Positions 41,390-62,580 of a DNA stretch of 64,000 bases are shown in pieces. The stretch is from Vicinamibacterales bacterium (lineage in GTDB: Bacteria > Acidobacteriota > Vicinamibacteria > Vicinamibacterales > JAENWD01). The position numbers and the translations under genes were made by a program. The stretch is taken from the NCBI GenBank assembly GCA_036381155.1, contig DASVDJ010000196.1, positions 52,823 to 116,822 on the forward strand, read 5' to 3'. Position 1 is the first letter of the stretch, and every line of letters starts with the position of its first letter. The notes below the pieces were generated by a model. The model searched no databases and was not told the DNA's origin. It saw only the letters and a list, made by a program, of their open reading frames with translations.

Positions 41390-41405
41390 TGCAAGGGAGC
41401 TGCCG
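41390..41405 (-). promoter_or_regulatory. Sigma-54-type -24/-12 promoter (P8)
   Basis: Minus strand CGGCAGCTCCCTTGCA. It lies 68 nt upstream of the ATG at 41321; SD GGAGG. Confidence 0.6.
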
Positions 41406-41406
41406 C

Positions 41407-41422
41407 AGGAACCGGCCTTGCA
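41407..41422 (+). promoter_or_regulatory. Sigma-54-type -24/-12 promoter (P7), back-to-back with P8
   Basis: AGGAACCGGCCTTGCA. It lies 11 nt upstream of the GTG at 41434. Confidence 0.55.
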
Positions 41423-42101: not shown

Positions 42102-42308
42102 TCAGAAGCCACGGCTGCCGCTGCGCCGGCCCGAGCCCCGCTTCCCGCGCGGCATCTCGAGCTCGATGCCCTCCGAGCCGCCTTCGGATCCGACGGCGCC
42201 CGAGCGCGCGGGCAGATCCTCGGGGGGCGGCGTCTCGGCGCGATCGGGCCACAGGGGCTCCGTCGGCGACCGTCCCTCTCGCTGCGTGCGCTCGACGTGC
42301 CTGGCCAT
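42102..42308 (-). CDS. 68-aa hydrophilic, Gly/Arg/Glu-rich small protein
   Basis: MARHVERTQREGRSPTEPLWPDRAETPPPEDLPARSGAVGSEGGSEGIELEMPRGKRGSGRRSGSRGF. SD GGAGG 5 nt upstream of the ATG. Confidence 0.5.
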   Translation of the reverse strand: MARHVERTQREGRSPTEPLWPDRAETPPPEDLPARSGAVGSEGGSEGIELEMPRGKRGSGRRSGSRGF

Positions 42309-42371
42309 CAGGCCTCCAGACGCGGACGCGCGGCGCCACGTCAGCGGCACCGCGCCGTACCGCGATGCGTG

Positions 42372-42656
42372 TCAGTAGCTGCCCTGCCGGCTGAACTGAT
42401 CCGACCCGAGCTGCTTCACCAGCTTGTTGTAGATGCCGAGCATCAGGAACACGGGCGCCCACTGGCCGACGAACAGGCTGCCGTGCTTCTGTCCCATCGC
42501 CTGCATCGTCGCGGACGCGGTGATGGCTCCCAGTGCCGCCCAGAGGAACGTGTCCGAGGGAAGCTTCGCCGTCTGCTCCTCGATGCGACGCGCAACGGGC
42601 CCTTCCGTGTGCTGCGACTCGCCGGTCCGGGACATGCCCGCGTGCAGGTTCTCCAT
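42372..42656 (-). CDS. 94-aa small membrane protein
   Basis: Hydrophilic N-terminus, then FLWAALGAITASATMQAM and WAPVFLMLGIY hydrophobic segments. SD AGGAGGAGG. Confidence 0.65.
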   Translation of the reverse strand: MENLHAGMSRTGESQHTEGPVARRIEEQTAKLPSDTFLWAALGAITASATMQAMGQKHGSLFVGQWAPVFLMLGIYNKLVKQLGSDQFSRQGSY

Positions 42657-42697: not shown

Positions 42698-42713
42698 TGC
42701 AAGCACAGGACCA
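42698..42713 (-). promoter_or_regulatory. Sigma-54-type -24/-12 promoter (P3)
   Basis: Minus strand TGGTCCTGTGCTTGCA. It lies 41 nt upstream of the ATG at 42656. Confidence 0.6.
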
Positions 42714-42731: not shown

Positions 42732-43607
42732 TCAGGCGTGACGGTACCGCCGCACCATGCGCAGGCAGAAGTCCGCGAACCTCGCCGGATCGCGCGGGGG
42801 ACTGGTGTGATGCGGCCGGATGCCGCACGACTCGGGTGTGAAGCAGAACGTCGCGGTCACCCGGAAGCGCGACAGCGCCGACATCTGCCGATCGAACCAT
42901 GCGTCCGCGCCGGGCCGGTGGCTGTCGGCCCAGCTCAATCCCGTGCGCAGGTATTCCACGCCGAGCTCGTCGAGCCACCGCACGGCGCAGTCGAGGCGAT
43001 GGTCCTCGAAGTGGAACCACTGGCAGATCCCCAGGTCGGGTGTATGCGCCGCGAACCGGGACAGCGCCCGTTTCGGCACCCCGTCCTCGCGAACCAGGCC
43101 CATGTAGAAGTGGCGATAGTACGAGGACCCTTCCGCCTCGCGATGGCGGGTGGTGGCCGGCCATGCCTTCGGCAGATCGAAGAGGCTGTACCAGTGAATC
43201 CGCGGCGTTCGTCCGATCACGAGCTCCGCCGTGCGCTGCAGGCCGAACTCCTGGACTTCCTCGGCGCCGAAGCTCGACGCCCCCGCCTCGGAGATCCACA
43301 CCGGCAGCGTGGTCAGCGACGCAATCGCCTCGAGCCGCGACGGCCACTCGTCAATCGTCCAGTGGTTCCAGTCGAGCGGGAAACCGTGAATCGCGACGGC
43401 GTCGACGGCCTCGAGCACGCCGTGCCCCTGCAGCAGCTGCAGGAACTGCGGGTCGATCGGCGACATCCCGCCGAGCACGATCGGCACGTCCCGCGTCTCG
43501 CTCCGGACCGCGTGGCTGGCCAGTCGCACCATGTCGCTGAAGAGCCGCCAGTCGGGATCGATCTGGAAGTCCCAGTGGGACAGGTTGTTGGGCTCGTTCC
43601 AGAGCAT
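42732..43607 (-). CDS. Clan GH-A-like glycoside hydrolase; TIM-barrel strand order appears circularly permuted
   Basis: Starts MLWNEPNNLSHW (acid/base NEP motif at residues 4-6). LPVWISEAGASS is the nucleophile-type motif. The C-terminal 95 aa (GICQWFHF...LGVEYLRTGLSWAD...RVTATFCFTP...FADFCLRMVRRY) look like barrel strands 1-3. An alternative GTG start lies at 43619. Confidence 0.7.
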   Translation of the reverse strand: MLWNEPNNLSHWDFQIDPDWRLFSDMVRLASHAVRSETRDVPIVLGGMSPIDPQFLQLLQGHGVLEAVDAVAIHGFPLDWNHWTIDEWPSRLEAIASLTTLPVWISEAGASSFGAEEVQEFGLQRTAELVIGRTPRIHWYSLFDLPKAWPATTRHREAEGSSYYRHFYMGLVREDGVPKRALSRFAAHTPDLGICQWFHFEDHRLDCAVRWLDELGVEYLRTGLSWADSHRPGADAWFDRQMSALSRFRVTATFCFTPESCGIRPHHTSPPRDPARFADFCLRMVRRYRHA

Positions 43608-43614
43608 CACCGCT

Positions 43615-44388
43615 TCAAGCACGGCCCTGCTCCGTGACGATGCGTGGCACGTCCGGCCCGGGCCCGGACGGCCGGCAGAGATACACCTCGGGCACGGGGT
43701 TGTCGACGATCTCGAACCCGGCGCTGCGCAGCATCGCCTCGGCGCAGGCACGGTTCGGCACCCACCAGTTCGTCCAGTCCTGCGCGAACTGCCGCTCGAT
43801 GAACTGCAGCCGCGGGAAGCCCGGCGTGGAGAACGGGGTGCTGTCGTGGAAATCGTAGTCCGGCTGGACCGGCGCGATCACGGCATCGCCACGAATCAGC
43901 GACTGGAACACCAGCAGGCGCCCGACGGCGTGACGCCGCAGCAGGTCCAGCGCGAGCAGCGGATGGCGGAGATGGTAGAGCACGCCCATGAAGAGCACGA
44001 GGTCGAAGGGGCCGCCGAGCTCCGCGACCTCGTAGACGGACCGCTCCTGGAACTCGACGTCCTCGTACCCGAGCCGTGCAGCCGCGAAGCGGGCCTGCCG
44101 CACGTACCGCGGGTCGGCGTCGATGCCGAGGACGTGCGCGGCGCCGCGGCGCTTCATCTCGAACGCGTAGAAGCCGGCGTTGCAGCCGACATCCAGCACA
44201 CGCCAGCCGCGCAGATCTTCGGGGAGACGGTGGGCGAAGTGCCGGAAGAATGTCGAGGGGAAATCGCCCAGATAGTGGCCGGGAGCGGTCTCCACACCGT
44301 CGAGCCGGAGATTGTGGAACCACGGGCCCAGCGCGTCGATGTGCGATCGGACCTCGTCTGGCTGCATGGATGGTGTCGCGTGCGCCAT
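43615..44388 (-). CDS. Class I SAM-dependent methyltransferase (CmoB-like architecture)
   Basis: GPWFHNLRLDG...WRVLDVGCNAGFYAFEM (motif I)...LVLFMGVLYHLRHPLLAL...NWWVPN. Confidence 0.8.
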   Translation of the reverse strand: MAHATPSMQPDEVRSHIDALGPWFHNLRLDGVETAPGHYLGDFPSTFFRHFAHRLPEDLRGWRVLDVGCNAGFYAFEMKRRGAAHVLGIDADPRYVRQARFAAARLGYEDVEFQERSVYEVAELGGPFDLVLFMGVLYHLRHPLLALDLLRRHAVGRLLVFQSLIRGDAVIAPVQPDYDFHDSTPFSTPGFPRLQFIERQFAQDWTNWWVPNRACAEAMLRSAGFEIVDNPVPEVYLCRPSGPGPDVPRIVTEQGRA

Positions 44389-44417
44389 GCGGACCTCAGC
44401 GCCTCCGCGCGCCCGGG

Positions 44418-44433
44418 TGCAATCGACGTTCCG
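44418..44433 (-). promoter_or_regulatory. Sigma-54-type -24/-12 promoter (P9)
   Basis: Minus strand CGGAACGTCGATTGCA. It lies 29 nt upstream of the ATG at 44388; SD GGAGG is in between. Confidence 0.6.
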
Positions 44434-44677
44434 CCCCGTCCGCACACGCGCGTGCGCAAGCCCGTGCGTGTGCGCGCCCGTTGTTCGCATCCCTGACAGG
44501 GCTGTTCATCTCCGATGCGACTGCCCCGCCGCGTGTGGCAGCACGTCGCGGAGTCTTCAACGGCCCGCGCGCGTTCCGCGTGCGCCGCGCGCGAGCCGGC
44601 CCGCTGCGTCATCCCGCACCCGCGACGTCCGAATCGTTGACGAATCAACAAAGATGGCGGTCGCTGCATACGTTGCG

Positions 44678-44693
44678 TGGAACATACGTTGCA
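44678..44693 (+). promoter_or_regulatory. Sigma-54-type -24/-12 promoter (P4) in front of the nine-gene glycan operon
   Basis: TGGAACATACGTTGCA. It lies 50 nt upstream of the ATG at 44744; SD GGGAGG. Confidence 0.65.
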
Positions 44694-44743
44694 GCCGCCG
44701 TGTTGCGGCACGGCTCTCAGCCGGGCGGGAGGTCGCAGCACGC

Positions 44744-45856
44744 ATGCGGATCCTGATCACGGGCGGCGCGGGATTCATCGGGTCTCACCTCGCCGATCAC
44801 CTGCTCGAGCACGGCTATGCCGTGCGCGTGCTCGACAGCCTCGTTCCGCAGGTGCATCCCGATCGGACGCGCCCCGACTATCTCCATCCGCGCGTCGAGC
44901 TCGTGCACGGCGACGTCCGCGATCCGGCTGCCGTGCGTCTGGCCCTCACCGGCGCGGACGCCGTCGTGCACTTCGCCGCACGCGTCGGCGTCGGCCAGAG
45001 CATGTACGAGATTGCGGAGTACACCGGCGTCAACAACGTCGGCACCGCCGTGCTGCTCGAGGCGTTGATCGACCGGCGGGTCCGCCGGCTCGTCGTGGCC
45101 TCGAGCATGAGCCTCTACGGCGAAGGCCTCTACCGTGAGGCGTCCGGCTCGTTCGTCACCGATGCCGGGCGCTCACCCGGACAGCTGCGCCGGGGAGACT
45201 GGGAGCCGCGCGGCGCCGACGGCCGGCCGCTCGTGCCGGTGCCGACGCCCGAGTCGAAGCCGCCGCGCCTCGCCTCCGTCTACGCGCTGTCGAAGTTCGA
45301 CCAGGAACAGCTCGCCCTGATCGTCGGGCGGACCTACGACATCCCGACCGTCGCGCTCCGGTTCTTCAACGTCTACGGCACGCGACAGGCGCTTTCGAAC
45401 CCGTACACGGGCGTGCTCGCGATCTTCGCGGCGCGGCTGCTGAACCGGCGTCCGCCGCTCATCTTCGAGGACGGCGCGCAGCAGCGCGATTTCGTCAGCG
45501 TGCACGACGTCGTGCGGGCCTGCCGCCTCGCGCTCGAGCGGCCGGCCGATGACGTCGCGGGACGTGCGTTCAACATCGGCAGCGGCGTCGCGCACAGCGT
45601 CGCGGAGGTCGCCGAGCTGCTCGCCGGCGCGCTCGGCGTGCCGCTCGCGCCGGAGCGCACCGGCCGGTACCGCGCAGGCGACATCCGCCATTGCTTCGCG
45701 GATCTCGCCGCCGCGCGGACCGGTCTGGGCTACGAGCCGCAGGTGTCGCTCGACCAGGGACTCGTGGAGCTCGCGGACTGGCTCGCGACGCAGGCGCCGG
45801 AGGATCTCGTGCCGGCGGCGAGCCTCGAGCTCGAACGCCGGGGGCTCACGGCATGA
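44744..45856 (+). CDS. NAD-dependent nucleotide-sugar epimerase/dehydratase (with internal insertion)
   Basis: MRILITGGAGFIGSHL; YALSKFDQE (YxxxK). A roughly 45-aa insertion precedes the catalytic Tyr. Confidence 0.85.
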   Translation: MRILITGGAGFIGSHLADHLLEHGYAVRVLDSLVPQVHPDRTRPDYLHPRVELVHGDVRDPAAVRLALTGADAVVHFAARVGVGQSMYEIAEYTGVNNVGTAVLLEALIDRRVRRLVVASSMSLYGEGLYREASGSFVTDAGRSPGQLRRGDWEPRGADGRPLVPVPTPESKPPRLASVYALSKFDQEQLALIVGRTYDIPTVALRFFNVYGTRQALSNPYTGVLAIFAARLLNRRPPLIFEDGAQQRDFVSVHDVVRACRLALERPADDVAGRAFNIGSGVAHSVAEVAELLAGALGVPLAPERTGRYRAGDIRHCFADLAAARTGLGYEPQVSLDQGLVELADWLATQAPEDLVPAASLELERRGLTA

Positions 45857-46950
45857 CCGTCAGGACCGACACTCACGACGCTCCGGACGCGACGTCGGCC
45901 GGCCGCGTGCTGGTCACCGGCGGTGCCGGCTTCATCGGCACCAATCTCGCCGGCCGGCTGGCCGCCTCGGGCCGGCCGGTCGTCGTGCTCGACACGCTCA
46001 GCCGCGCCGGCGTCGAGCGCAACGCGCGCTGGCTGCGCGAGACGTACGGCGACCGCATCGAGCTGGTCGTCGGCGACGTCAGGCAGCCCGCGGCGCTCGA
46101 GCGCGCGCTGGACGGTGTGTCCGAGGTCTATCACCTCGCCGCACAGGTCGCCGTGACGACGAGCCTCGACGACCCGCTGCATGATTTCGACGTCAACGCG
46201 CGCGGGACGCTGACGCTGCTCGAGGCGATCCGCCGCATGCGCTCCTTCCCCACGCTGCTGTTCACGTCGACCAACAAGGTGTACGGCGCCCTCGAGGACG
46301 TCCCGCTGGCGCGGGCCGGCCGGCGCTATCGCCCCGTCGACGAGACGCTCTGCTGCCATGGCGTCGACGAAGAGCGCCCGCTCGCCTTCCACAGCCCGTA
46401 TGGCTGCTCGAAGGGGTCCGCGGATCAGTACGTGCTGGACTACGCGCGCACGTTCGGCCTGCCGGCGGCGGTGCTGCGCATGAGCTGCATCTACGGCCCG
46501 CATCAGCACGGCAACGAAGATCAGGGCTGGGTCGCACACTTCCTGAAGCGCGCGCTGGCGGGCGAGCCGCTCGTGATCTACGGCGACGGCTGCCAGGTCC
46601 GCGACGTGCTCTACATCGACGATCTCGTCGACGCGTTCCTCGCGGCGCGCGCGGCCATCGGACGGATTGCCGGACGCGCCTTCAACATCGGCGGCGGGCC
46701 GGACCGCGCCGTGAGCCTGCTGGAGCTGATCGATCGGCTGGAGGGACTGACGCGCCGCACGGTGGCGTGCTCGATGGCGCCCTGGCGTGCCGCCGATCAG
46801 CGCTATTACGTCTCCGATTGCCGGCGCTTCGCGCGGGCCACGGGCTGGACGGCACAGGTGTCCGTGGACGAGGGGCTCACGCGTCTGGCCGGGTGGCTGC
46901 AGCCCGCCGGGACGCCGGACGCCGTGCCGCGCCGGCTCGCGGTCTCGTGA
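45853..46950 (+). CDS. NAD-dependent epimerase, CDP-paratose/tyvelose 2-epimerase-like
   Basis: VLVTGGAGFIGTNL; YGCSKGSADQYVLDYARTFGL; GNEDQGWVAHF. ATGA overlap with the upstream gene. Confidence 0.8.
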   Translation: MTVRTDTHDAPDATSAGRVLVTGGAGFIGTNLAGRLAASGRPVVVLDTLSRAGVERNARWLRETYGDRIELVVGDVRQPAALERALDGVSEVYHLAAQVAVTTSLDDPLHDFDVNARGTLTLLEAIRRMRSFPTLLFTSTNKVYGALEDVPLARAGRRYRPVDETLCCHGVDEERPLAFHSPYGCSKGSADQYVLDYARTFGLPAAVLRMSCIYGPHQHGNEDQGWVAHFLKRALAGEPLVIYGDGCQVRDVLYIDDLVDAFLAARAAIGRIAGRAFNIGGGPDRAVSLLELIDRLEGLTRRTVACSMAPWRAADQRYYVSDCRRFARATGWTAQVSVDEGLTRLAGWLQPAGTPDAVPRRLAVS

Positions 46951-46952
46951 TC

Positions 46953-48062
46953 ATGGGCACACCGACTCCGGCTCACGTCCTGATGACCGCGGATGCCGTC
47001 GGCGGCGTGTGGACCTATGCCACCACGCTTGCCGAAGGTCTTGGCGCCCGCGGCGTCCGGATTACGCTCGCCGTCCTCGGCCCGCCGCCGCGGCCGGAGC
47101 AGCTCGACGCCGTGCGAAGGCTGCCGTTCGTCGACGTGTGCCACGCCCGGTTCGCGCTGGAGTGGATGCCCGGTGCCGAGCGGGACGTCGAGCGCTCCGC
47201 TGAGTGGGTACTGCGGCTGGTCCAGGAGCGCCGGCCCGACGTCGTCCAGATCAACGGCTACGCGCTCGCGACCTATCCGTTGGGCTGTCCGACGTTCCTG
47301 GTTGCGCACTCGTGCGTGTGCTCGTGGTGGCGTGCCGTGCACGGGTGCCAGGCGCCACACGCGTGGCGCACGTATCGACAGCGCGTGGACATCGGCCTGC
47401 AGCGTGCCAGCCGGGTCGTGGCGCCGACCGCGGCGATGCTCCGCGCGCTCCGTCGGGAGTTCCGGTGGAAGGGGGACGGGCTCGTGATCCACAACGGCCT
47501 GCCACCACCCGGCGCGCCGCCGGCGTCACCCCGCGTCGGGGTGCTGGCCGCCGGCCGCGTGTGGGATGCCGCCAAGAACATCGCCGTGCTCGACACGGTG
47601 GCGCCTGACGTCGACGGCCCGGTGGCCATCGCCGGCGACGCCAGCAGTCCCGACGGCAGCCAGCGGTTGCCGCGTCACGCCGAGTGCCTGGGATCGCTGC
47701 CGAGAGACGCGGTGCTGGCCCGGATGACCGAGACTGCCGTCTACGCCCTGCCGGCCCGGTACGAGCCGTTCGGGCTCTCCGTGCTCGAGGCCGCACAGCG
47801 CGGCTGTGCGCTCGTGCTCGGCGACATCTCGACGCTGCGCGAGCTCTGGGAGGGAGCCGCGGTGTTCGTGCAGCCCGACGACCGGGTGGGGCTCACCCGC
47901 GTGCTGAACCGGCTCGTGCACGATCCCGCGGCGCGCCAGCGGCTGGCCGAGGCCGCCCGGCTGCGCGCGACGCGCTACACGCTCGCCGCGATGGTCGACG
48001 GGTACCTGCGTTTGTATCGTGCGCTCGCGCGCACCGGGGAGGCGGTTCCGTGCGCGTCGTAG
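46953..48062 (+). CDS. GT-B glycosyltransferase, GT4-like
   Basis: ADAVGGVWTY N-terminus; EPFGLSVLEAAQRGCALVLGDISTLRE (E-x7-E region). Confidence 0.8.
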   Translation: MGTPTPAHVLMTADAVGGVWTYATTLAEGLGARGVRITLAVLGPPPRPEQLDAVRRLPFVDVCHARFALEWMPGAERDVERSAEWVLRLVQERRPDVVQINGYALATYPLGCPTFLVAHSCVCSWWRAVHGCQAPHAWRTYRQRVDIGLQRASRVVAPTAAMLRALRREFRWKGDGLVIHNGLPPPGAPPASPRVGVLAAGRVWDAAKNIAVLDTVAPDVDGPVAIAGDASSPDGSQRLPRHAECLGSLPRDAVLARMTETAVYALPARYEPFGLSVLEAAQRGCALVLGDISTLRELWEGAAVFVQPDDRVGLTRVLNRLVHDPAARQRLAEAARLRATRYTLAAMVDGYLRLYRALARTGEAVPCAS

Positions 48063-49177
48063 TCCTGTGCCACTCGCTGCGGTCGGACTGGAACCACGGC
48101 AACGCGCACTTCCTGCGCGGCATCTGCCGCGACCTGCTGCGGCGCGGGCACGAGGTCGTCGTCCTCGAGCCCGCGAATGGCTGGAGCGCGCTGAACCTGA
48201 CACGGGAAGCCGGCATGGCCGGGCTCGACGCCTATCGCGCGGCGTACCCGGAACTGGAGTCGTCCGTCTACGACCCGTCGCGCTTCGATGCCGACGCCGC
48301 GCTCGACGGCGCCGATCTCGTCATCGTTCACGAGTGGACCGATCCCGCCATCGTGCACGCCGTCGGCCGGTACCGGCGCAGGGCCTGCTGCGTCCTGCTG
48401 TTCCACGACACGCATCATCGCAGCGTCTCCAGCCCGGACGAGATCGACCGGCTCGACCTGTCGGACTACGACGGCGTGCTCGCCTTTGGCGCGGCCGTCG
48501 CCGACCAGTACGTCGCCCGCCGCCTGGCGGCGAACGTCTGGGTCTGGCACGAGGCCGCCGACGTCTCGGTGTTCGCGCCGCGCGAGGGCGTGGCGCGCGA
48601 GGCCGACGTCGTCTGGATCGGCAACTGGGGCGACGACGAGCGGACGGCGGAGCTGCACGAGTTCCTGCTCGAGCCTGTACGAGCGCTCGGGCTCGGCGGC
48701 TCCGTGCACGGCGTCCGCTACCCGGCCGGCGCACGCGAGTCGGTCGCACGCGCGGGGCTCGCCTACCACGGCTGGCTGCCCAATCACGCCGTGCCGGAGG
48801 TCTTCGCGCGGCATCGCGTGACGGTGCACATCCCGCGCCGCCCCTACGCCGACGCGCTGCCCGGGATCCCGACCATCCGGGTCTTCGAGGCGCTCGCCTG
48901 CGGCATCCCGCTCGTCTGCGCGCCCTGGACCGACAGTGAGGGCCTGTTCACGCCTGGTGCCGACTATCTGGTGGCGCGCGACGGCGCCGACATGCGGGCC
49001 CACCTGCGGTCGCTGACGTCGGACGCCGCGCTGGCCGATGCGATCGCACGGCACGGGCGCCACACGGTGCTGACGAGGCACACCTGCCGCCATCGGGTCG
49101 ACGAACTGCTGGCCATCGTCTCGTCGCTGGCCGGCGCGGCGGCTGCGACGCCGCACCGCGAGGTCGAGGTGTTCTGA
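48050..49177 (+). CDS. CgeB-like glycosyltransferase paralog 1 (Glyco_trans_1_2-type C-terminus)
   Basis: GTG start after GGGGAGG. VRVVVLCHSLRSDWNHGNAHFLRGI; RVFEALACGIPLVCAPWTDSEGLFTPGADYLVA. Confidence 0.75.
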   Translation: MRVVVLCHSLRSDWNHGNAHFLRGICRDLLRRGHEVVVLEPANGWSALNLTREAGMAGLDAYRAAYPELESSVYDPSRFDADAALDGADLVIVHEWTDPAIVHAVGRYRRRACCVLLFHDTHHRSVSSPDEIDRLDLSDYDGVLAFGAAVADQYVARRLAANVWVWHEAADVSVFAPREGVAREADVVWIGNWGDDERTAELHEFLLEPVRALGLGGSVHGVRYPAGARESVARAGLAYHGWLPNHAVPEVFARHRVTVHIPRRPYADALPGIPTIRVFEALACGIPLVCAPWTDSEGLFTPGADYLVARDGADMRAHLRSLTSDAALADAIARHGRHTVLTRHTCRHRVDELLAIVSSLAGAAAATPHREVEVF

Positions 49178-50352
49178 TGCGGCCGACGCTGGCCTTCTTC
49201 GGATCGAGTCTGGTGTCCGCGTACTGGAACGGCGCCGCCACGTACTACCGCGGCATCCTCCGCGCGCTGGACACGCGCGGATGGCGCGCGACCTTCTTCG
49301 AGCCGGACGCCTTTGGACGGCAGGCCCATCGCGACATCCCCGATCCGTCGTGGGCGCGCGTCCTGGTGTACCAGCCGACACCTGACGGACTGCAGCGCGC
49401 GCTCGATGAAGCCGCGAGTGCCGACGTCCTGGTCAAGGCGAGCGGCGTCGGCGTCTTCGATGCCGAGCTCGAGGCCGCTCTGCCGGCCATGCGCCGGCCC
49501 GGGCAGATCTGCCTCTTCTGGGACGTCGACGCGCCCGCGACGCTGGAGCGGCTGGACCGGACACCGGACGACCCGCTCCGCGCCCGGATTCCGTCGTTCG
49601 ATCTCGTGCTGACGTACGGCGGCGGCCCGCCGGTGGTGGCACTGTACCGCGCGCTCGGCGCTCGCGACTGCGTGCCCATCTACAACGCCCTGGATCCGGA
49701 CACCCACCATCCGGTCCCGCCGCACGACGCCTATCGCGCCGACCTGGCGTTCCTCGGCAACCGCCTGCCCGATCGCGAGGAGCGGGTGCGCGAGTTCTTC
49801 CTCTCGGCGGCGGCCGCGCGGCCGGCCCGCTCGTTCCTGCTTGGCGGCAACGGCTGGCACCCGGACGACGTGCCTCCGAACGTGACCGTGCTCGGGCACG
49901 TGCCGACGGCCGCGCACAACACGTTCAACTGCTCGCCGCTCGCCGTGCTGAACATCAACCGCTCCAGCATGGCGCGGATCGGCTTCTCGCCGGCCACACG
50001 CGTGTTCGAGGCGGCAGGGGCCGGCGCCTGTCTCGTCACCGATGCGTTCGAGGGTGTCGAGGCGTTCCTCTCGCCCGGCGAGGAGATTCTCGTCGCGGAC
50101 AGCGGCGCCGACGTGATCGGTCTCCTCGACGCGCTCACGCCGGAGCGCGCCCGGGCCATCGGGCGCGCCGCGCGCGCCCGCGTGCTGGCCGCGCACACGT
50201 ACGAACACCGGGTCGTCCAGCTCGAACGCGTGCTGGACGCCGCACTCACCGGATCGCCTCGATGCAGCCAACGCTCCGCTTCGTCTTTCTCGGCCTCTCC
50301 GTCACGTCCTCGTGGGGAAACGGCCACGCCACGACGTACCGCGGCCTCGTAA
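49177..50352 (+). CDS. CgeB-like glycosyltransferase paralog 2
   Basis: MRPTLAFFGSSLVSAYWNGAATYYRGIL; RVFEAAGAGACLVTDAFEGVEAFLSPGEEILVA. The 3' end overlaps the next gene by 91 nt. Confidence 0.75.
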   Translation: MRPTLAFFGSSLVSAYWNGAATYYRGILRALDTRGWRATFFEPDAFGRQAHRDIPDPSWARVLVYQPTPDGLQRALDEAASADVLVKASGVGVFDAELEAALPAMRRPGQICLFWDVDAPATLERLDRTPDDPLRARIPSFDLVLTYGGGPPVVALYRALGARDCVPIYNALDPDTHHPVPPHDAYRADLAFLGNRLPDREERVREFFLSAAAARPARSFLLGGNGWHPDDVPPNVTVLGHVPTAAHNTFNCSPLAVLNINRSSMARIGFSPATRVFEAAGAGACLVTDAFEGVEAFLSPGEEILVADSGADVIGLLDALTPERARAIGRAARARVLAAHTYEHRVVQLERVLDAALTGSPRCSQRSASSFSASPSRPRGETATPRRTAAS

Positions 50353-51461
50353 CCGCCCTGGCACGGCGCGGACACGACGTGCTCTTCCTCGAGCGCGACG
50401 CGCCGTGGTACGCGCGGCACCGTGATCTGACGGAGCTGGCCGGCGCCCGCGTCGAGCTGTACGGATCGGTCGTCGATCTCCGCCGCCGGTTCACCAGGGA
50501 GATCCAGCGCGCGCACATCGTCGTGGTCGGGTCGTACGTGCCGGAAGGGCGCCGGGTCGGGCGCTGGGTGCGGGCGGCGGCGCGCGGCATCGTTGCCTTC
50601 TACGACATCGACACGCCGGTGACGCTCGCGACGCTCGAGACGGATCGCTGTGAGTACCTGTCGCGGCGCCTGCTGCCTGCCTACGACCTGTACCTGTCCT
50701 TCAGCGGCGGCCCCGCGCTCCGCCGGCTCAACCGGCTCGGCGCACGCATGGTCCGTCCGCTGTACTGCGCGGTCGATCCAGCGCAGTACCTGCCGGCCGG
50801 CGGGCCTTCCGCGTGGGACCTGGGCTATCTCGGCACGTACGCCGCGGATCGGCAGCCCGCGCTCGAGTCGCTGCTGCTCCGGGTCGCGGACGGCTGGCCC
50901 GACGGGCGCTTCGTGGTCGGCGGTCCGCTGTATCCGCCCGACATCCACTGGCCCGCGAACGTGGAGCGCACCGAGCATGTCCCGCCGGCGGATCACAGCC
51001 GCTTCTACGGCCGCCAGCGGTTCACGCTGAACCTGACGCGCGCCGACATGCGCCGGCTCGGACACTCCCCGAGCGTCCGGCTGTTCGAAGCCGCGGCGTG
51101 CGGCGCCGCCATCCTGACCGATGACTGGAGCGGGCTCGACGAGTTCTTCACGCCCGGCATCGACCTGGTCCGCGTGCGATCCGCGCGCGACGTCGTCGAG
51201 GCACTGCGTGACATGCCCGAAGAGCGGCGCGTCGCGCTCGGGTGCTCGGCGCGGGCGCGCGTGCTGGCCGCCCACACGGCCGACGACCGCGCGCGAAGGC
51301 TCGAAGAGTACGCGTTCGAGCTGCTCGAGACCCGGGCGGTCGCGTCCCGGGCGGCCGACATGTCCCGCGGGCGGCCGCGCCGACGCTCGCAGCCGCCCGC
51401 GCGACCACGAGTCGCGGCCGTGCAGCGGCAGCTCGGAATTGACGAGGACCTCACGGCATGA
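50262..51461 (+). CDS. CgeB-like glycosyltransferase paralog 3
   Basis: MQPTLRFVFLGLSVTSSWGNGHATTYRGL; RLFEAAACGAAILTDDWSGLDEFFTPGIDLVRV. Confidence 0.75.
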   Translation: MQPTLRFVFLGLSVTSSWGNGHATTYRGLVTALARRGHDVLFLERDAPWYARHRDLTELAGARVELYGSVVDLRRRFTREIQRAHIVVVGSYVPEGRRVGRWVRAAARGIVAFYDIDTPVTLATLETDRCEYLSRRLLPAYDLYLSFSGGPALRRLNRLGARMVRPLYCAVDPAQYLPAGGPSAWDLGYLGTYAADRQPALESLLLRVADGWPDGRFVVGGPLYPPDIHWPANVERTEHVPPADHSRFYGRQRFTLNLTRADMRRLGHSPSVRLFEAAACGAAILTDDWSGLDEFFTPGIDLVRVRSARDVVEALRDMPEERRVALGCSARARVLAAHTADDRARRLEEYAFELLETRAVASRAADMSRGRPRRRSQPPARPRVAAVQRQLGIDEDLTA

Positions 51462-52411
51462 TGCGCGCGGCGGTCCTCACCGGCGACGGCGGCGTGACGC
51501 TGACGCGCTGTGCCCCTCCCGAGCCCGGTCCGGGCCAGCTGCGCGTGCGGCTCGAAGGGTCGGGTGTCTGCGGCTCCAATCTGCCGGTCTGGGAAGGGCG
51601 ACCGTGGTTCGAGTATCCCCGCCCGCCCGGATCTCCGGGCCACGAGGGCTGGGGCGTCGTCGATGCCGCGGGACCGGGCACGGAGTCGACCCTGGTGGGC
51701 CGCCGGGTCGCGCTGCTCTCCGAACATGCGTTCGCGGAGTGGGATCTCGCGCCGCCGTCGGCCGTCGTGCCCGTCCCGGACGCGCTGGCCGGGCGCGCCT
51801 GTCCTGCCGAGCCGCTGGCCTGCGCAGTGAACGTCATGCACCGCGCCGCCATCCACGACGGCGACGTCGTCGTCGTGCTCGGCGTCGGGTTTCTCGGGGC
51901 GTCGCTGGTGGCGCTGGCGTCGAGCGCGGGGGCCCGGGTCGTCGCCGCGTCGCGCCGGCCGTTCGCGCGCCGGCTGGCGTCGCAGCTTGGTGCGGCGCAC
52001 GTCTGTCCGCTCGAGCACGACGCGCTCGTGAACGCCGTCGCGGCGCTGTCGGGCGGCCAGCTTGCCGACTGCGTGATCGAGGCGGCCGGCACCCAGGAGA
52101 CGCTCGATCTGGGCGGTGAGCTGACGCGCGTGCGCGGACGGCTCGTCGTCGCCGGCTATCACCAGGACGGCCCGCGCCTCGTCAACCTGCAGCTCTGGAA
52201 CTGGCGCGGGATCGACGTGGTCAACGCGCACGAACGCGACGAGGCGGTGTACGTCGAGGGGATGCGGCAGGCCCTGGCGCTCGCGGCCGACGGCGTCCTG
52301 CCGCTCGATCTGCTGATCACGCACGTCCTCCCGCTCGACGGCATCGACCAGGCATTCCACCTCATGGCGGAACGCCCGGATGGCTTCCTGAAGGCTGTTG
52401 TCGTCTGTTGA
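51458..52411 (+). CDS. Zinc-dependent MDR-family alcohol/polyol dehydrogenase
   Basis: GVCGSNLPVWEG...PGHEGWGVV (GHE zinc site)...VVVLGVGFLG (Rossmann). Confidence 0.8.
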   Translation: MMRAAVLTGDGGVTLTRCAPPEPGPGQLRVRLEGSGVCGSNLPVWEGRPWFEYPRPPGSPGHEGWGVVDAAGPGTESTLVGRRVALLSEHAFAEWDLAPPSAVVPVPDALAGRACPAEPLACAVNVMHRAAIHDGDVVVVLGVGFLGASLVALASSAGARVVAASRRPFARRLASQLGAAHVCPLEHDALVNAVAALSGGQLADCVIEAAGTQETLDLGGELTRVRGRLVVAGYHQDGPRLVNLQLWNWRGIDVVNAHERDEAVYVEGMRQALALAADGVLPLDLLITHVLPLDGIDQAFHLMAERPDGFLKAVVVC

Positions 52412-53484
52412 GTCCCATGGGGTCCGCCACCGCATCCCGCCCACGGCCGAGACTCGGGTTTCTCGGTCTCGGCTGGATCGGCCGTCACCGCCTCGAGTGC
52501 GTCGCCGCCGCCCGGACCGCGGAGATCGCGGCGCTCGCCGATGCCGACCGCCATGCGCTGTCCGATGCGCAGCGGCTCGTCCCGGGCGCCGTCTGCGCGC
52601 GCTCGCTCGAAGCGCTGCTCGGTCGGGCGGACCAGCTCGACGGCCTCGTCATCGCGACGCCCAGCGCCGGGCACGCCCCCGAGACTGCGGCCGCGCTCGA
52701 CGCCGGGCTCGCCGTCTTCTGCCAGAAGCCGCTCGGACGCACCGCGGCCGAAGCGAGTCGGGTCGTCGAGATCGCGCGGCAGCGTAATCGGCTGCTCGAC
52801 GTCGATCTCGGCTACCGGCACCTCGCGGCCACGCAGGCCGTGCGGAATTCGCTCGAGGCCGGTGAACTGGGCGACATCGTCGCCGTGGACCTCACCTTCC
52901 ACAACGCCTACGGCCCCGACAAGCCGTGGTACTACGACCGGACACTCTCGGGAGGCGGCTGTCTGATCGACCTCGGCGTCCATCTGATCGACCTGCTCCA
53001 TGTCCTCACCGGACGGCGTGCCTGGCGCGTCACCGCTGCGGCGCTCTTCGCGAGCGGCCGGCGCTGGACGCGCGATTCGGAGGCGGTCGAAGACCTCGCG
53101 ATCGCGCAGCTGGATCACGCCTCCGGCATGGCAGCACGCCTGGCCTGCTCGTGGCGTTTGCCAGCCGGATGCGACGCGGTGATCGAGTGGACGGTGCAGG
53201 GCACGACGTCCGCCGCGCGGGTGCGCAACGTCGGCGGGTCGTTCTACGACTTCACCGCCGAGCGGCTCGATCGCGGCCGGCTCCGGACGCTCGTGCAGCC
53301 GCCCGACGCGTGGGGCGGGCGGGCCCTGCTGGACTGGACCGCACGCCTTGCTGAAGGAAACCGCTTCGATCCGCGGGCAGACCGGCTTGTCGACCTCGCG
53401 GCCGCGATCGACGCGATCTACGACGCGGCCACACCGTCCGCCGGGGTCGGCCCGCCAGCCGGGTCACGCGTGGTCAGCGCCTGA
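52408..53484 (+). CDS. Gfo/Idh/MocA family oxidoreductase
   Basis: RLGFLGLGWIGRHR (N-terminal Rossmann), VFCQKPL (EKP-like motif), GGGCLIDLGVHLIDL. Confidence 0.8.
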   Translation: MSPMGSATASRPRPRLGFLGLGWIGRHRLECVAAARTAEIAALADADRHALSDAQRLVPGAVCARSLEALLGRADQLDGLVIATPSAGHAPETAAALDAGLAVFCQKPLGRTAAEASRVVEIARQRNRLLDVDLGYRHLAATQAVRNSLEAGELGDIVAVDLTFHNAYGPDKPWYYDRTLSGGGCLIDLGVHLIDLLHVLTGRRAWRVTAAALFASGRRWTRDSEAVEDLAIAQLDHASGMAARLACSWRLPAGCDAVIEWTVQGTTSAARVRNVGGSFYDFTAERLDRGRLRTLVQPPDAWGGRALLDWTARLAEGNRFDPRADRLVDLAAAIDAIYDAATPSAGVGPPAGSRVVSA

Positions 53485-54542
53485 TTCGCGCGCGCCCAGG
53501 AGAGCAGGCGTTCGAGCGCCGCCGCGCGATGCCGCGCCGTGTGCCCGGCCAGGACACGCGCCCGCGCCGCTTCCGCGATCCGGCGCCGCCGGCGGGGCGG
53601 CATGTCCAACGCTGCCAGCACCTCGTCACACCCGGCCGCCGTCACGATTTCTTCGCCGGCCGTGAAGAACTCCTCCAGACCGGGCCAGACATCGGTGACG
53701 ATCGCGGCCTCGCAGGCGGCGCCCTCGAACAGTCGGCCGGATGGACAGTGCCCCATCGCCGCCATCGGCCCGCGGGTGACGTTGATCGTCCATCGCGACG
53801 AGGCGTACAGCGCCGGATGCCGCGCGGGCGACAGGTGCGGCACGGTGCGCAGACCCGGACGCGCCGCGACGTCCGGCGGATACAGCGCGCCGGCCAGCAG
53901 CAGCCGCAGTGAGGGCCGCCGCTCGCCGGGGACCAGGAACAGCTCGCGCAGGCCCGCGAGCCGATCGGCCGCGTAGGTGCCCAGATGTGAGAGGTCGCAG
54001 CGGAGCCACCGTTCCGGGCGGCCGGGTCTGTAAGCGTCCGCGTCGACGAAGCCCGGGAGCGCCGCCGTCGCGCGCGCGCCGAGACGCCGCTCGAGCGCAG
54101 CCAGCGCCGGTCCACCGGCATAGCTCAGTACCAGATTGAACCGTCCGAGGCCGCCTGCGGGCACGTAGTCGACGCGCTCACCGGTGTCGAGCCGCGCGAG
54201 CGTCACGGGCGTGTCGAGGTCGTAGAAGACGCGCAGCGCGTCGGCCTGCTCCATCGCGGCGACGGCTGCCTCCGCATCAGGACAGTACGACGTGACGATG
54301 GCGGCATCGGTTTCCGCGAGGACCTGCAGGGCGCGACGGGGGTTCCAGGCGTCGTACAGGACAAGCGTGCCCCACGGCAGTTCGACGAGGTCGCGATGAT
54401 CGGCGTAGTACGGAACGTTCCGTTCGAAGAAGGTGACCTGATGCCCACGCTCGGCCAGCGCACGGATCAGCGCGCGCCACAGCGTCGCGTGGCCGTTGCC
54501 CCAGGAGGAGCTGACGGTCAGCCCGAAGACGGCGAGCCGCAT
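53418..54542 (-). CDS. CgeB-like glycosyltransferase paralog 4 (opposite strand)
   Basis: MRLAVFGLTVSSSWGNGHATLWRALIRAL; RLFEGAACEAAIVTDVWPGLEEFFTAGEEIVTA. Its 3' end overlaps the convergent oxidoreductase gene by 67 nt. Confidence 0.75.
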   Translation of the reverse strand: MRLAVFGLTVSSSWGNGHATLWRALIRALAERGHQVTFFERNVPYYADHRDLVELPWGTLVLYDAWNPRRALQVLAETDAAIVTSYCPDAEAAVAAMEQADALRVFYDLDTPVTLARLDTGERVDYVPAGGLGRFNLVLSYAGGPALAALERRLGARATAALPGFVDADAYRPGRPERWLRCDLSHLGTYAADRLAGLRELFLVPGERRPSLRLLLAGALYPPDVAARPGLRTVPHLSPARHPALYASSRWTINVTRGPMAAMGHCPSGRLFEGAACEAAIVTDVWPGLEEFFTAGEEIVTAAGCDEVLAALDMPPRRRRRIAEAARARVLAGHTARHRAAALERLLSWARANQALTTRDPAGGPTPADGVAAS

Positions 54543-54556
54543 GATTCGGGACAGGC

Positions 54557-54901
54557 TCAGCGGGACGCCTGCAGCGGCTCGTCCTCGTCCTCCTCGTCCT
54601 CGTCGTCGTAATCGTCTTCGTCCTCTTCGTCTTCCCAGCCGCCGTCATCCTCCTCGTCGTCGCTCTCCTCCTCCTCCTCCTCGTTCTCGTCGTCCTCCTC
54701 GTCCTCGAGGTCGTCGTCGTCCAGCTCGTCGTCGTCATCGGGGTCCGCGAGCCGCACGCGTCGGTACTCGACCGAAGCCGAATCGTCTGGCATGCCGGCG
54801 CTCCACAGGGCGCAGACACAGCGATCGCCTGCGACAGCGCCCGGAGCCGACAGCCGTGTCATCAGGTCCGCGACATCGATCGACAGTCCGTGTGGTGCCA
54901 T
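54557..54901 (-). CDS. 114-aa protein with an extreme poly-Asp/Glu C-terminal tail
   Basis: MAPHGLSIDVADLMTRLSAPGAVAGDRCVCALWSAGMPDDSASVEYRRVRLA, then DPDDDDELDDDDLEDEEDDENEEEEEESDDEEDDGGWEDEEDEDDYDDEDEEDEDE. By my count 47 of 56 tail residues are D/E. Confidence 0.6.
   Translation of the reverse strand: MAPHGLSIDVADLMTRLSAPGAVAGDRCVCALWSAGMPDDSASVEYRRVRLADPDDDDELDDDDLEDEEDDENEEEEEESDDEEDDGGWEDEEDEDDYDDEDEEDEDEPLQASR
54578..54745 (-). repeat. Low-complexity GAC/GAG/GAA codon tract encoding the acidic tail
   Basis: The plus strand shows runs of gtcctc/gtcgtc/ctcctc. Confidence 0.8.
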
Positions 54902-54927
54902 GGCTTCTCTCGAGTTGGCGCCGGGAA

Positions 54928-55806
54928 TCACGCGGCGCGGGTTTCACCGCCGAGGAGCGTCAGGACTTCGCCCGTGACGAAACTGGAGTCCGCGGGCGAG
55001 GCGAAGAACACGTACGCCGGCGCAATCTCCTCGGGCTGCGCCGGCCGTTCGAGCGGTGTCTTCTGGCCGAACGTCGCAACCTGCGCCGCGGGCTTGTCGG
55101 CCACGTTGAGCGGCGTCCAGACCGGACCCGGTGACACGCAGTTCACGCGAATGCCGCGCTCCACAAGGCTCCGGGCAAGCGACTTCGTGAAGGCGTGGAT
55201 GGCGCCCTTCGTAGCCGAGTAGTCGAGCAGCTGCGGATTGCCTTCGAGCCCCGTGATCGAGCCGGTGTTGATGATCACGCTTCCCGGACGCAAATGGGAC
55301 AGGGCGGCGCGGGCCATGTAGAAGTAGCCGTAGATGTTGGTCCGGAAGGTCCGGTCCCACTGCGCGTCGTCGATGGCCTCGGGCCGCTCCTGTCGATGCT
55401 GGTACGCGGCGTTGTTCACGAGGATGTCGAGGTGTCCGAACGCGGCGACCGTCTGCTCCACGGCGTCCCGGCAGAACGCCGACTCGCGCACGTCGCCCGC
55501 GATCCGGATGGCGCGGCGTCCTTCCCGCTCCACCGCGGCGACGGTCTCGTCCGCATCGGACTGCTCCTCGGGCAGGTGGACGATTGCGACGTCAGCCCCT
55601 TCACGGGCGAACAGCACGGCGACGGCGCGCCCGATGCCGGAATCGCCTCCCGTGATCAGGCCGACCTTGCCGTCCAGCTTTCCGGACCCGGCATAGCGCG
55701 GCGCCTCGTACCGCGGGCGGGGCTCGATTCGGCTCTCCAGCCCGGGCCGCTCCTGCGCCTGCTCGGGGAATGGCGGCTTCGGCTGCGGCGCGCCCGTCTC
55801 GGCCAT
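54928..55806 (-). CDS. SDR-family oxidoreductase of the YghA/YhxC general-stress type
   Basis: GKVGLITGGDSGIGRAVA (TGxxxGIG), NNAA, YSATKGA (YxxxK), and the long N-terminal PKPPFPEQ...PRY extension typical of this subgroup. Confidence 0.85.
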   Translation of the reverse strand: MAETGAPQPKPPFPEQAQERPGLESRIEPRPRYEAPRYAGSGKLDGKVGLITGGDSGIGRAVAVLFAREGADVAIVHLPEEQSDADETVAAVEREGRRAIRIAGDVRESAFCRDAVEQTVAAFGHLDILVNNAAYQHRQERPEAIDDAQWDRTFRTNIYGYFYMARAALSHLRPGSVIINTGSITGLEGNPQLLDYSATKGAIHAFTKSLARSLVERGIRVNCVSPGPVWTPLNVADKPAAQVATFGQKTPLERPAQPEEIAPAYVFFASPADSSFVTGEVLTLLGGETRAA

Positions 55807-55893: not shown

Positions 55894-55909
55894 TGCAAGA
55901 GAGTTGCCG
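55894..55909 (-). promoter_or_regulatory. Sigma-54-type -24/-12 promoter (P5)
   Basis: Minus strand CGGCAACTCTCTTGCA. It lies 87 nt upstream of the ATG at 55806. Confidence 0.6.
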
Positions 55910-57726: not shown

Positions 57727-57766
57727 CGTGACGCCTCCGCGCGGCAATGACCGCCCTGCCGCTACT

Positions 57767-58807: not shown

Positions 58808-58873
58808 GGTTGACTTCCCGGTTTCCGGGGCGGCGCGCCGCCCGCGTCCTTTCTCCGGCGTCCGTCGCCGGCT

Positions 58874-59728: not shown

Positions 59729-59729
59729 G

Positions 59730-60506: not shown

Positions 60507-62516
<2,010 letters not shown>

Positions 62517-62580
62517 GGCACGGCCGGTCCGCCCGTACGGACCGGATCCGTCAATCGTACCATGACCCGCGCCGCGGGCG

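Follow-up and report, generated by a model that had tools for sequence, protein, structure and literature searches.

CgeB of Bacillus subtilis, a 317-aa protein encoded in a sporulation operon, is a putative UDP-sugar protein glycosyltransferase for Thr112 of CgeA (PMC13577073). Here we analyze a locus with four CgeB-like genes in a 64,000-nt stretch of DNA (the window; positions 52,823 to 116,822 of contig DASVDJ010000196.1, assembly GCA_036381155.1) from a Vicinamibacterales bacterium of the phylum Acidobacteriota, and we find that this locus is one instance of a widespread two-module gene cassette that most likely yields a soluble, methylated sugar compound of intracellular location. An earlier note on the same DNA had called it an uncharacterized glycan or sugar-modification locus. 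That description stands: no characterized pathway matched the gene set, and no published description of the cassette, or of the NCBIfam families TIGR04290 and TIGR04295 that cover parts of it, was found in the searchable literature (subscription literature lay outside this scope).

The likeness to CgeB, the spore-crust glycosyltransferase of B. subtilis, which the earlier note had also pointed out, holds for the common Pfam domain and not beyond that level. All four paralogs belong to PF13524, and the GT-B glycosyltransferase fold of one of them, CgeB3, is consistent with the use of a nucleoside diphosphate (NDP)-sugar. However, the paralogs described here are longer (375 to 399 aa), carry an N-terminal S-x-W-G-N-G-H-A-T loop, and form an invariant trio plus a fourth copy inside a cassette of sugar-nucleotide and tailoring genes in which no cgeA was found. 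To our knowledge, the acidobacterial host does not sporulate.

Two groups of soluble pathways are also comparable. The early steps of mycothiol synthesis are carried out by Ino1, MshA, the phosphatase MshA2, the PIG-L deacetylase MshB, and the GNAT protein MshD; bacillithiol synthesis uses BshA and BshB. As in those pathways, the cassette pairs a predicted soluble retaining GT-B enzyme for a phosphorylated or small acceptor with a phosphatase. MshA and BshA rank near the top of the structures that match CgeB3, and genes for inositol-phosphate synthase (MIPS), PIG-L, and GNAT proteins join the cassette in other phyla. In contrast to those pathways, it has no cysteine ligase and adds its own nucleotidyltransferase, methyltransferase, and glycosidase, and the window lacks MIPS, PIG-L, and GNAT. 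The GT4-family glycosyltransferase of the locus scored 27 to 30 bits against the MshA and BshA NCBIfam models (cutoffs, 274 to 462), and the CgeB proteins matched none of these models. The mycobacterial methylglucose lipopolysaccharide (MGLP) and methylmannose polysaccharide (MMP) pathways (ManT, MeT1/MeT3, MmpH) combine, as is predicted for the cassette, cytoplasmic GT4-type elongation, S-adenosylmethionine (SAM)-dependent O-methylation, and a clustered dedicated hydrolase, and the MGLP primer passes through a histidine-phosphatase step catalyzed by GpgP. The likeness of CgeB3 to ManT (7qsg) is at the level of the fold only, however; the methyltransferase of the cassette is TIGR04290/CmoB-like, its hydrolase is a permuted GH39-like barrel, and MGLP/MMP synthesis has no counterpart to the two NDP-sugar epimerases or to the redox or radical-SAM tailoring. 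Moreover, the cassette is spread over 13 phyla, whereas we know of MGLP and MMP pathways only from Actinobacteria. The cassette resembles soluble GT-B pathways (sucrose and glucosylglycerate synthase-phosphatase systems, early mycothiol synthesis, and MGLP/MMP) and apparently belongs to none of them.

Distribution and architecture of the cassette

We compared the locus across phyla by tblastn with the window proteins (HEX7088280-96) against 86 fetched loci (L numbers below), together with de novo clustering of all open reading frames (ORFs) of these loci; gene-presence counts were taken over the 47 loci that have at least 8 kb on either side of CgeB3. A scan of GTDB, with each species represented by a single genome, confirmed a CgeB3 relative in at least 599 of these representatives. 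CgeB3 has thousands of homologs at ~55 to 62% identity, and carriers occur in at least 13 phyla (Acidobacteriota, Myxococcota, Cyanobacteriota, Bacteroidota, Rhodothermota, Gemmatimonadota, Verrucomicrobiota, Planctomycetota, Armatimonadota, Abditibacteriota, Pseudomonadota, Desulfobacterota, Methylomirabilota, Fibrobacterota, and Eisenbacteria). The gene-neighborhood comparison called for in the earlier note revealed a set conserved in its order: Epi1-Epi2-GT4-CgeB1-CgeB2-CgeB3 is kept in at least 13 phyla, and cassette proteins are 55 to 75% identical between phyla. The nearest neighbor of CgeB3 lies in its own phylum in 41 of 78 cases, and cross-phylum pairs reach 65 to 76% identity, which argues for horizontal transfer besides vertical descent.

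Module A, the core, has the order Epi1-[GH]-Epi2-[MDR+Gfo or B12 radical-SAM]-GT4-CgeB1-CgeB2-CgeB3 (genes in brackets are not always present; MDR, medium-chain dehydrogenase/reductase; Gfo, Gfo/Idh/MocA oxidoreductase). CgeB2 is present in 43 of the 47 loci, GT4 and CgeB1 in 40 each, Epi1 in 38, and Epi2 in 35. MDR and Gfo occur in 19 and 17 loci, respectively, and a radical-SAM gene occurs in the same slot in 17; no locus carries both. The radical-SAM protein, which is absent from the window, matches TIGR04295 ("B12_rSAM_oligo") with 783 bits, and the exchange looks like a nonorthologous replacement of the redox step. Its carriers include L005, L008, L015, L024, L030 (Sorangium), and ~12 other loci; Sorangium also has a third epimerase after CgeB3. 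This alternation brings to mind that of NeoA and BtrN in 2-deoxystreptamine pathways, and with the inositol-type dehydrogenases on one side of it, and MIPS, a PIG-L deacetylase, and GNAT in extended forms of module B, the product could be a specialized cyclitol- or aminoglycoside-like pseudo-oligosaccharide. We consider this rather improbable, since the cassette lacks an aminotransferase, a sugar-phosphate cyclase, a resistance gene, and an exporter and since a fixed gene order in at least 599 species and 13 phyla is unlike a secondary-metabolite cluster.

Module B, the accessory module, comprises [MIPS]-CgeB4-NTP-MT-GHx-[PIG-L-GT4b-GNAT]-[histidine phosphatase], where NTP is a nucleotidyltransferase-like gene, MT a methyltransferase gene, and GHx a hydrolase gene. 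Of the 47 loci, 11 have CgeB4 and NTP, always both and as neighbors in match order. The two genes are directly adjacent in L089, and the pairing is seen in Verrucomicrobiota, Alphaproteobacteria, Sphingomonas, and Methylobacterium. MT is present in 27 of the 47 loci, after CgeB3, and GHx in 16; MIPS is found in 8, each of which also has MT and GHx, and lies within module B in Verrucomicrobiota and Alphaproteobacteria. PIG-L deacetylase, GT4b, and GNAT extend the module in other phyla and are absent from the window. Homologs of the histidine phosphatase (30 to 38% identity) adjoin MT, GHx, or CgeB4 in 7 of 47 loci. The module can also stand without module A: Sphingomonas lenta has CgeB4-NTP-PIG-L deacetylase-GT4-methyltransferase-GNAT (Acetyltransf_6; L089, 10001-15358), and Methylobacterium sp. 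P31 has the CgeB4-NTP pair alone (L088, 10001-11800), its NTP gene uncalled in the record. The four CgeB paralogs are therefore not equivalent; CgeB1 to CgeB3 are an invariant core trio, and CgeB4 belongs to a separate accessory module.

In the window, parts of module B lie on either side of module A. All 13 genes listed in the earlier note were recovered at their positions with Pfam and NCBIfam (Table 1), and the gene set it had bounded at 42732 to 55806 is correct, but the functional locus begins farther left, at ~40509, since NTP and the histidine phosphatase co-occur with CgeB4, MT, and GHx in other phyla.

The CgeB-like glycosyltransferases

The four CgeB-like proteins proposed in the earlier note all match PF13524, with 120 to 130 bits against a cutoff of 25, and both motifs described there are seen in a four-way alignment. 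The N-terminal motif takes the forms SDWNHGNAH, SAYWNGAAT, and SSWGNGHAT (twice), and the C-terminal motif reads R(V/L)FE(A/G)...F(F/L)(T/S)(P/A)G. CgeB3 and CgeB4 are 46% identical, CgeB2 is ~38% identical to either of them, CgeB1 is ~27% identical to the rest, and CgeB1 orthologs in the fetched loci are 48 to 64% identical by tblastn. R..R-x-F-E in the C domain and the S..G.A loop in the N domain are invariant across the four paralogs; on this basis, each of them is likely to bind a nucleotide sugar.

Of the AlphaFold and Foldseek checks suggested earlier for the paralogs, that on CgeB3, the one paralog modeled, was positive: the AlphaFold2 (AF2) model has a GT-B fold (mean predicted local distance difference test score [pLDDT], 92.4). 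Its top Foldseek matches (E, ~1e-14 to 1e-13; template modeling score [TM], 0.6 to 0.7) were sucrose-phosphate synthase, MshA, tetrahydrobiopterin glucosyltransferase, ManT (7qsg, in the top 5), BshA, and GlgM, which are soluble retaining GT4 enzymes that use small or soluble acceptors. By sequence, CgeB3 and GT4 had no meaningful relatives in the PDB; the sole CgeB3 match was a de novo TIM barrel (E, 3e-4).

Two readings of the cassette bear on these matches. In one, the glycosyltransferases would build a membrane glycolipid by stepwise glycosylation of diacylglycerol, phosphatidylinositol, a hopanoid, or a carotenoid at the cytoplasmic face. PimA and PimB', the phosphatidylinositol mannosyltransferases, are among the structural matches of CgeB3, the association with MIPS fits phosphatidylinositol equally well, and peripheral GT4 enzymes need no membrane segment. 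Nevertheless, module A has no conserved lipid-synthesis or acyltransferase gene, and a methyltransferase, an endoglycosidase, and a phosphatase for a phosphorylated soluble acceptor suit a soluble product better; a glycolipid is thus unlikely. The other reading, protein glycosylation as by CgeB on CgeA, would have as its target a stress or surface protein such as the unusual poly-acidic protein that shares an operon with CgeB4. A homolog of that protein was found solely in L001, a near-identical relative, so it is lineage specific and probably not part of the pathway; the earlier note was right about its presence before CgeB4 and probably not about its membership. No small ORF is conserved across the 80+ loci (the largest cluster covers 8 loci and apparently consists of gene fragments), no cgeA-type partner was found, and the structural neighbors of CgeB3 act on small molecules or oligosaccharides. 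We therefore regard protein glycosylation as quite unlikely.

The last 91 nt of the CgeB2 gene are also the start of the CgeB3 gene, in another frame, such that the nonconserved C-terminal tail of CgeB2 is read from DNA that codes for the conserved N terminus of CgeB3. In L087 (Logan SRR22387906, 7851-10037), an Illumina-assembled contig, the two are joined in a verified in-frame fusion, a Rosetta-stone hint that the trio cooperates; CgeB1, CgeB2, and CgeB3 probably act as a complex. L087 is the sole verified in-frame case. Apparent fusions in L022 and L077, from nanopore-derived metagenome-assembled genomes (MAGs), have no continuous frame and are most likely assembly frameshifts, and the arrangement differs in P0013.

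A circularly permuted clan GH-A hydrolase

The earlier note had called GHx a permuted GH-A hydrolase, and two comparisons bear this out. The first is with PslG, a GH39 endoglycosidase of the Pseudomonas Psl operon and the only solved sequence relative of GHx; like GHx, it is a hydrolase with its gene in a biosynthetic operon. As a single copy, GHx residues 2 to 147 align to PslG 136 to 289 (E, 1e-3), but when the query is doubled, residues 195 to 438 align contiguously to PslG 25 to 289 over the C-to-N junction (E, 1.3e-7). GHx WNEPN aligns with PslG WNEPN and ISEAG with STEWG, both motifs are invariant in 26 GHx homologs, the NEP motif carries the predicted acid/base Glu, and the Glu within ISEAG is the putative nucleophile. 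The protein starts at strand beta-4 (NEP at residues 4 to 6, numbered from the M at 43607), so that beta-4 to beta-8 come first and beta-1 to beta-3 last, in place of the canonical beta-1-to-beta-8 order. Unlike PslG, GHx has no extra C-terminal domain and no hydrophobic segment long enough for an anchor or signal peptide. The family (295 aa, 70 to 75% identical across phyla) is named "beta-xylosidase" or "GH5 family" in source databases. In the AF2 model (pLDDT, 85.5), strands and helices alternate to form a (beta/alpha)8 barrel, and Foldseek returned GH5, GH10, and other TIM barrels, with sequential TM of only 0.3 to 0.5 against GH5 and GH10, as expected for a circularly permuted fold.

The second comparison is with a canonical-order paralog inside the cassette, either free-standing between Epi1 and Epi2 or, in Hymenobacteraceae, fused to the N terminus of Epi2. 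In Pontibacter, residues 13 to 106 of the paralog match GHx 190 to 281 (43% identity) and residues 122 to 312 match GHx 2 to 201 (34%). With a canonical GH domain and its permuted paralog in the same pathway, the cassette offers a clear-cut natural case of a clan GH-A barrel that has undergone permutation. The GH-Epi2 fusion (684 aa; L033, 2344-4398, Pontibacter chitinilyticus) has similar counterparts in L018, L036, L053, and L067. A hydrolase joined to a supposed sugar-nucleotide epimerase is an odd pairing; given this fusion, Epi2 may act on a glycan rather than on an NDP-sugar.

Sugar-nucleotide, methylation, and redox enzymes

The family assignments of the earlier note, the permuted hydrolase included, were right overall. 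Epi1 (56 to 69% identical across phyla, with an insert of ~40 aa) is nearest in the PDB to 6wjb and to the UDP-glucose 4-epimerase 4zrm (E, 1e-43 to 5e-41); 6wjb is the UDP-GlcNAc 4-epimerase PelX. For Epi2, the proposed likeness to CDP-paratose/tyvelose 2-epimerase was upheld: residues 18 to 349, the full length, align to CDP-tyvelose 2-epimerase 1orr (E, 6e-80), 9rl0 follows (E, 4e-77), and both the GGAGFIG (GxxGxxG) and YGCSK (YxxxK) motifs of the short-chain dehydrogenases/reductases (SDRs) are in the sequence. However, genes for CDP-glucose 4,6-dehydratase, for E1/E3, and for paratose synthase are all missing from the locus, which therefore lacks a 3,6-dideoxyhexose route. NTP weakly matches the AglF and RmlA NCBIfam models, and its L012 ortholog matches RmlA in the PDB (E, 2.5e-9). 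Since the PDB matches of NTP are RmlA/GalU-type enzymes and include no inositol-phosphate cytidylyltransferase, a CDP-inositol route is not supported.

MT exceeds the cutoff of TIGR04290 (meth_Rta_06860; 356.1 bits against 300) and is nearest in the PDB to CmoB and the sugar O-methyltransferase EvdMO1; it is probably a sugar O-methyltransferase. Both TIGR04290 and TIGR04295, which the radical-SAM protein of other lineages matches, are hypothetical-equivalog families, so curators have already modeled pieces of the cassette. PADLOC gave only a generic methyltransferase match, and we set aside antiphage defense. MDR, nearest to threonine and polyol dehydrogenases, is short (317 aa); when it is aligned to threonine dehydrogenases, a gap of ~30 residues follows position 86, at the structural-zinc lobe of this family. 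Gfo is nearest to inositol 2-dehydrogenase, 1,5-anhydrofructose reductase, and DgpA and resembles glycoside 3-oxidases. A hydrolase of clan GH-A next to oxidoreductases that resemble glycoside 3-dehydrogenases would also be seen in a catabolic sugar-utilization locus; this reading is very improbable, as five glycosyltransferases and two NDP-sugar epimerases predominate and genes for a transporter, a kinase, an isomerase, and a binding protein are absent.

In a scan of the locus proteins, no 19-residue hydrophobic segment was found except the Rossmann strand of MDR. With Pfam, neither the locus proteins nor the products of the neighboring ORFs scanned showed a domain of a transporter, flippase, polymerase, chain-length regulator, initiating phosphoglycosyltransferase, or Wzx/Wzy protein, and this agrees with the earlier view that the locus is not a standard O-antigen or extracellular polysaccharide (EPS) cluster. 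It could still make a cell-envelope or extracellular polysaccharide (EPS, capsule, or lipooligosaccharide [LOS] type) with export genes elsewhere in the genome: PslG comes from an exopolysaccharide operon, the LOS outer-core loci of Acinetobacter include PF13524 glycosyltransferases as well, and L087 has an ABC exporter (ABC_membrane plus ABC_tran), along with a canonical-order GH, directly downstream of the cassette. Yet de novo clustering of the loci (mostly shadow ORFs, plus radical-SAM, NTP, MIPS, UGDH, NUDIX, and GNAT/GT4b) gave a generic ABC ATPase as the only transporter family that recurred, and the window locus encodes no membrane protein. In addition, surface-glycan glycosyltransferases are normally hypervariable, whereas the cassette enzymes are 55 to 75% identical across phyla in a fixed order. 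A surface polysaccharide is thus improbable.

Promoter-like elements

The motif GG-N8-TTGCA, of the sigma-54 -24/-12 type, occurs nine times in the window against 3.1 expected, and none of 100 shuffles reached nine. Seven of the nine sites lie within the locus, each upstream of, and directed at, a gene or ORF: NTP, the histidine phosphatase, the small gene p94, MT-GHx, the Epi1 operon, SDR-acidic protein-CgeB4, and a small ORF at ~56.1 kb. Five of them (Epi1, histidine phosphatase, SDR, p94, and MT) were compared with L001, which retains GG and TTGCA at each, with the spacer the same or substituted. When the region between MT and Epi1 is aligned, its two elements lie in 100%-conserved islands, and its middle has diverged. 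The strict motif is found upstream of Epi1 in 2 of 48 loci, and the relaxed motif recurs consistently in L001 alone, so we rejected sigma-54 control as a general property of the cassette. The claim of sigma-54 promoters in the earlier note is correct for the motif and its conservation in L001, but not as a cassette-wide trait; predicted sigma-54-type control is specific to this Vicinamibacterales lineage.

Further features surround these elements. The elements at 41390 and 41408, between the divergent NTP and phosphatase genes, together form the palindrome TGCAAGG-N19-CCTTGCA. CATACGTTGC occurs twice, 16 nt apart (44667-44692), around the Epi1 element gCATACGTTGCgtggaaCATACGTTGCa and is fully conserved in L001, and a second conserved island (44484-44528) holds the palindrome CCCTGACAGGG. 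No sigma-70-like promoter was found, Rfam gave no match at E values up to 0.1, and terminator-like sites were no commoner than in shuffled sequence.

Proposed pathway

Building on the observed enzyme families, the conserved two-module architecture without membrane or export parts, the CgeB3 fold, the permutation, and the motifs, we propose, with slightly better than even confidence, that the locus encodes a soluble cytoplasmic pathway from common sugar nucleotides to a small hetero-oligosaccharide or glycoside that is then tailored. Epi1 (4-epimerase-like) and Epi2 (CDP-tyvelose 2-epimerase-like) would turn common NDP-hexoses into rarer epimers, and GT4 and each of CgeB1, CgeB2, and CgeB3 would add one sugar. 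MDR and Gfo, or elsewhere the B12 radical-SAM enzyme, would oxidize or epimerize a ring position. In module B, NTP would activate a sugar-1-phosphate, CgeB4 would move the activated sugar onto a phosphorylated acceptor, and the histidine phosphatase would strip the phosphate, following the synthase/phosphatase scheme of sucrose, glucosylglycerate, and GlcNAc-inositol synthesis. The acceptor may be inositol phosphate, since MIPS sits in module B of Verrucomicrobiota and Alphaproteobacteria. MT would O-methylate the product, and the permuted PslG-like GHx would trim or recycle it. The sigma-54-type promoters would drive the operons in this Vicinamibacterales lineage, and as they adjoin genes of general-stress type, they point to production under starvation or desiccation.

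Several points weigh against this proposal. Each chemical step is assigned from family membership. MIPS is not in the window and joins the cassette in two phyla only, and the resemblance of NTP to RmlA/GalU is weak. GT4-type enzymes can act on lipids or proteins at membrane surfaces without a membrane segment, and in one locus (L087) an ABC exporter adjoins the cassette. As to regulation, the 41390/41408 pair may be a regulator-binding site or operator instead of two promoters, and no Sigma54_activat domain (bacterial enhancer-binding protein) was detected among the ten large window ORFs scanned. More tentatively, and with much less confidence than for the pathway itself, we suggest a hitherto unrecognized intracellular glycan shared by bacteria of at least 13 phyla, many of which come from soil: a methylated oligosaccharide, possibly inositol primed, built by a heteromeric machine of CgeB1, CgeB2, and CgeB3, remodeled by GHx, and induced by starvation or desiccation. 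Such a glycan would be comparable to mycobacterial polymethylated polysaccharides or compatible-solute glycosides.

Gene models and neighboring genes

The window has a G+C content of 69 to 77%, a composition at which raw ORF lists are noisy. Gene models (Table 1) came from filtering on third-position G+C (GC3), Pfam, and gene calls on the syntenic relative L001, a second MAG contig (GCA_964446605.1) with the same locus at 69 to 97% protein identity, which guided the choice of starts for GHx, MT, CgeB1, and Gfo. The plus-strand genes from Epi1 to Gfo overlap by 1 to 91 nt or are spaced by 2 nt, consistent with one operon. The minus-strand pair GHx and MT diverges from it, and a minus-strand operon headed by the SDR (SDR-acidic protein-CgeB4) converges on it.

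Table 1 Features of the locus and the evidence for each (coordinates are those of the window)
Feature	Coordinates	Strand	Evidence or remark
NTP: sugar-1-phosphate nucleotidyltransferase-like, module B	40509-41321	-	Pfam NTP_transferase, E 5.5e-5; start set at M69 of ORF
Histidine phosphatase (His_Phos_1), module B	41434-42069	+	Pfam, E 9e-40
GHx: circularly permuted PslG/GH39-like clan GH-A glycosidase	42732-43622	-	PslG alignment, AF2 model
MT: TIGR04290-family SAM methyltransferase	43615-44388	-	NCBIfam
Epi1: extended-SDR NDP-hexose 4-epimerase-like	44744-45856	+	Pfam Epimerase, E 8e-52, two stretches
Epi2: CDP-tyvelose 2-epimerase-like SDR	45853-46950	+	PDB 1orr, E 6e-80
GT4-family glycosyltransferase	46953-48062	+	Pfam Glyco_transf_4 and Glycos_transf_1
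CgeB1	48050-49177	+	PF13524, E 1e-37
CgeB2	49177-50352	+	PF13524, E 3e-37
CgeB3	50262-51461	+	PF13524, E 2e-37
MDR (zinc-ADH-like) dehydrogenase, putative tailoring enzyme	51458-52411	+	Pfam
Gfo/Idh/MocA oxidoreductase, putative partner of MDR	52408-53484	+	Pfam
CgeB4, module B glycosyltransferase	53418-54542	-	PF13524, E 8e-35
Poly-acidic protein, 124 aa, pI 4.1	54557-54931	-	Homolog in L001 only
PRK06701-subfamily SDR	54928-55806	-	NCBIfam, 458 bits (cutoff, 413)
Sigma-54-type -24/-12 element GGCAGCTCCCTTGCA	41390-41404	-	69 nt upstream of NTP ATG
Sigma-54-type element GGAACCGGCCTTGCA	41408-41422	+	Upstream of histidine phosphatase; one spacer substitution in L001
Sigma-54-type element, p94	42698-42712	-	Motif match
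Sigma-54-type element GGAACGTCGATTGCA	44418-44432	-	29 nt upstream of MT ATG
Sigma-54-type element tGGAACATACGTTGCA	44679-44693	+	50 nt upstream of Epi1 ATG
Sigma-54-type element GGCAACTCTCTTGCA	55894-55908	-	88 nt upstream of SDR; spacer change in L001

Between the phosphatase and GHx lies p94 (42372-42656, minus strand), which encodes a 94-aa protein without a Pfam match, whose hydrophilic N-terminal part leads into a hydrophobic segment, LWAALGAITASATMQAMG...VFLMLGIY. It is 97% identical in L001, making it the most conserved protein of the region, and was not found in other phyla. An ORF beside it (42102-42350, minus strand; 82 aa, basic) is of doubtful reality. The PRK06701-subfamily SDR presumably belongs to the YghA/YdaD general-stress family; its homologs, several of them ~50% identical, adjoin the cassette in 7 of the 47 loci. 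Farther right, positions 57029-60503 of the minus strand hold a weak DUF948 match, a YtxH-like ORF (domain match in L001), MlaD, an ABC ATPase, and one more ORF that is probably the permease; UvrB follows (60507-62825). L001 shows synteny from DUF948 up to the ABC ATPase, at which point its contig ends. The earlier remark that the locus lies among stress proteins is a fair, though soft, description of its SDR, YtxH-domain, DUF948, and MlaD/ABC neighbors. About 20 kb upstream of the locus, a sugar-1-phosphate nucleotidyltransferase gene with an LbH tail and a phosphoglucomutase/phosphomannomutase gene (21089-23543, plus strand) are possible suppliers of NDP-hexoses to the cassette.

Implications

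That the gene order stays fixed, with 55 to 75% protein identity, over at least 599 species representatives from at least 13 phyla points to a product under strong selection. Among cultured bacteria, the core is carried by Pontibacter, Rufibacter, Luteibacter, Sorangium, and Myxococcus, and module B is carried by Sphingomonas and Methylobacterium. Soil, crust, or desert taxa make up many of the carriers (Vicinamibacterales, Gemmatimonadales, Udaeobacter, Pontibacter, Belnapia, Nafulsella, and crust cyanobacteria). Together with sigma-54-type promoters beside general-stress genes, this makes the product of the cassette a candidate for an unrecognized stress or storage carbohydrate in abundant, little-studied soil bacteria.

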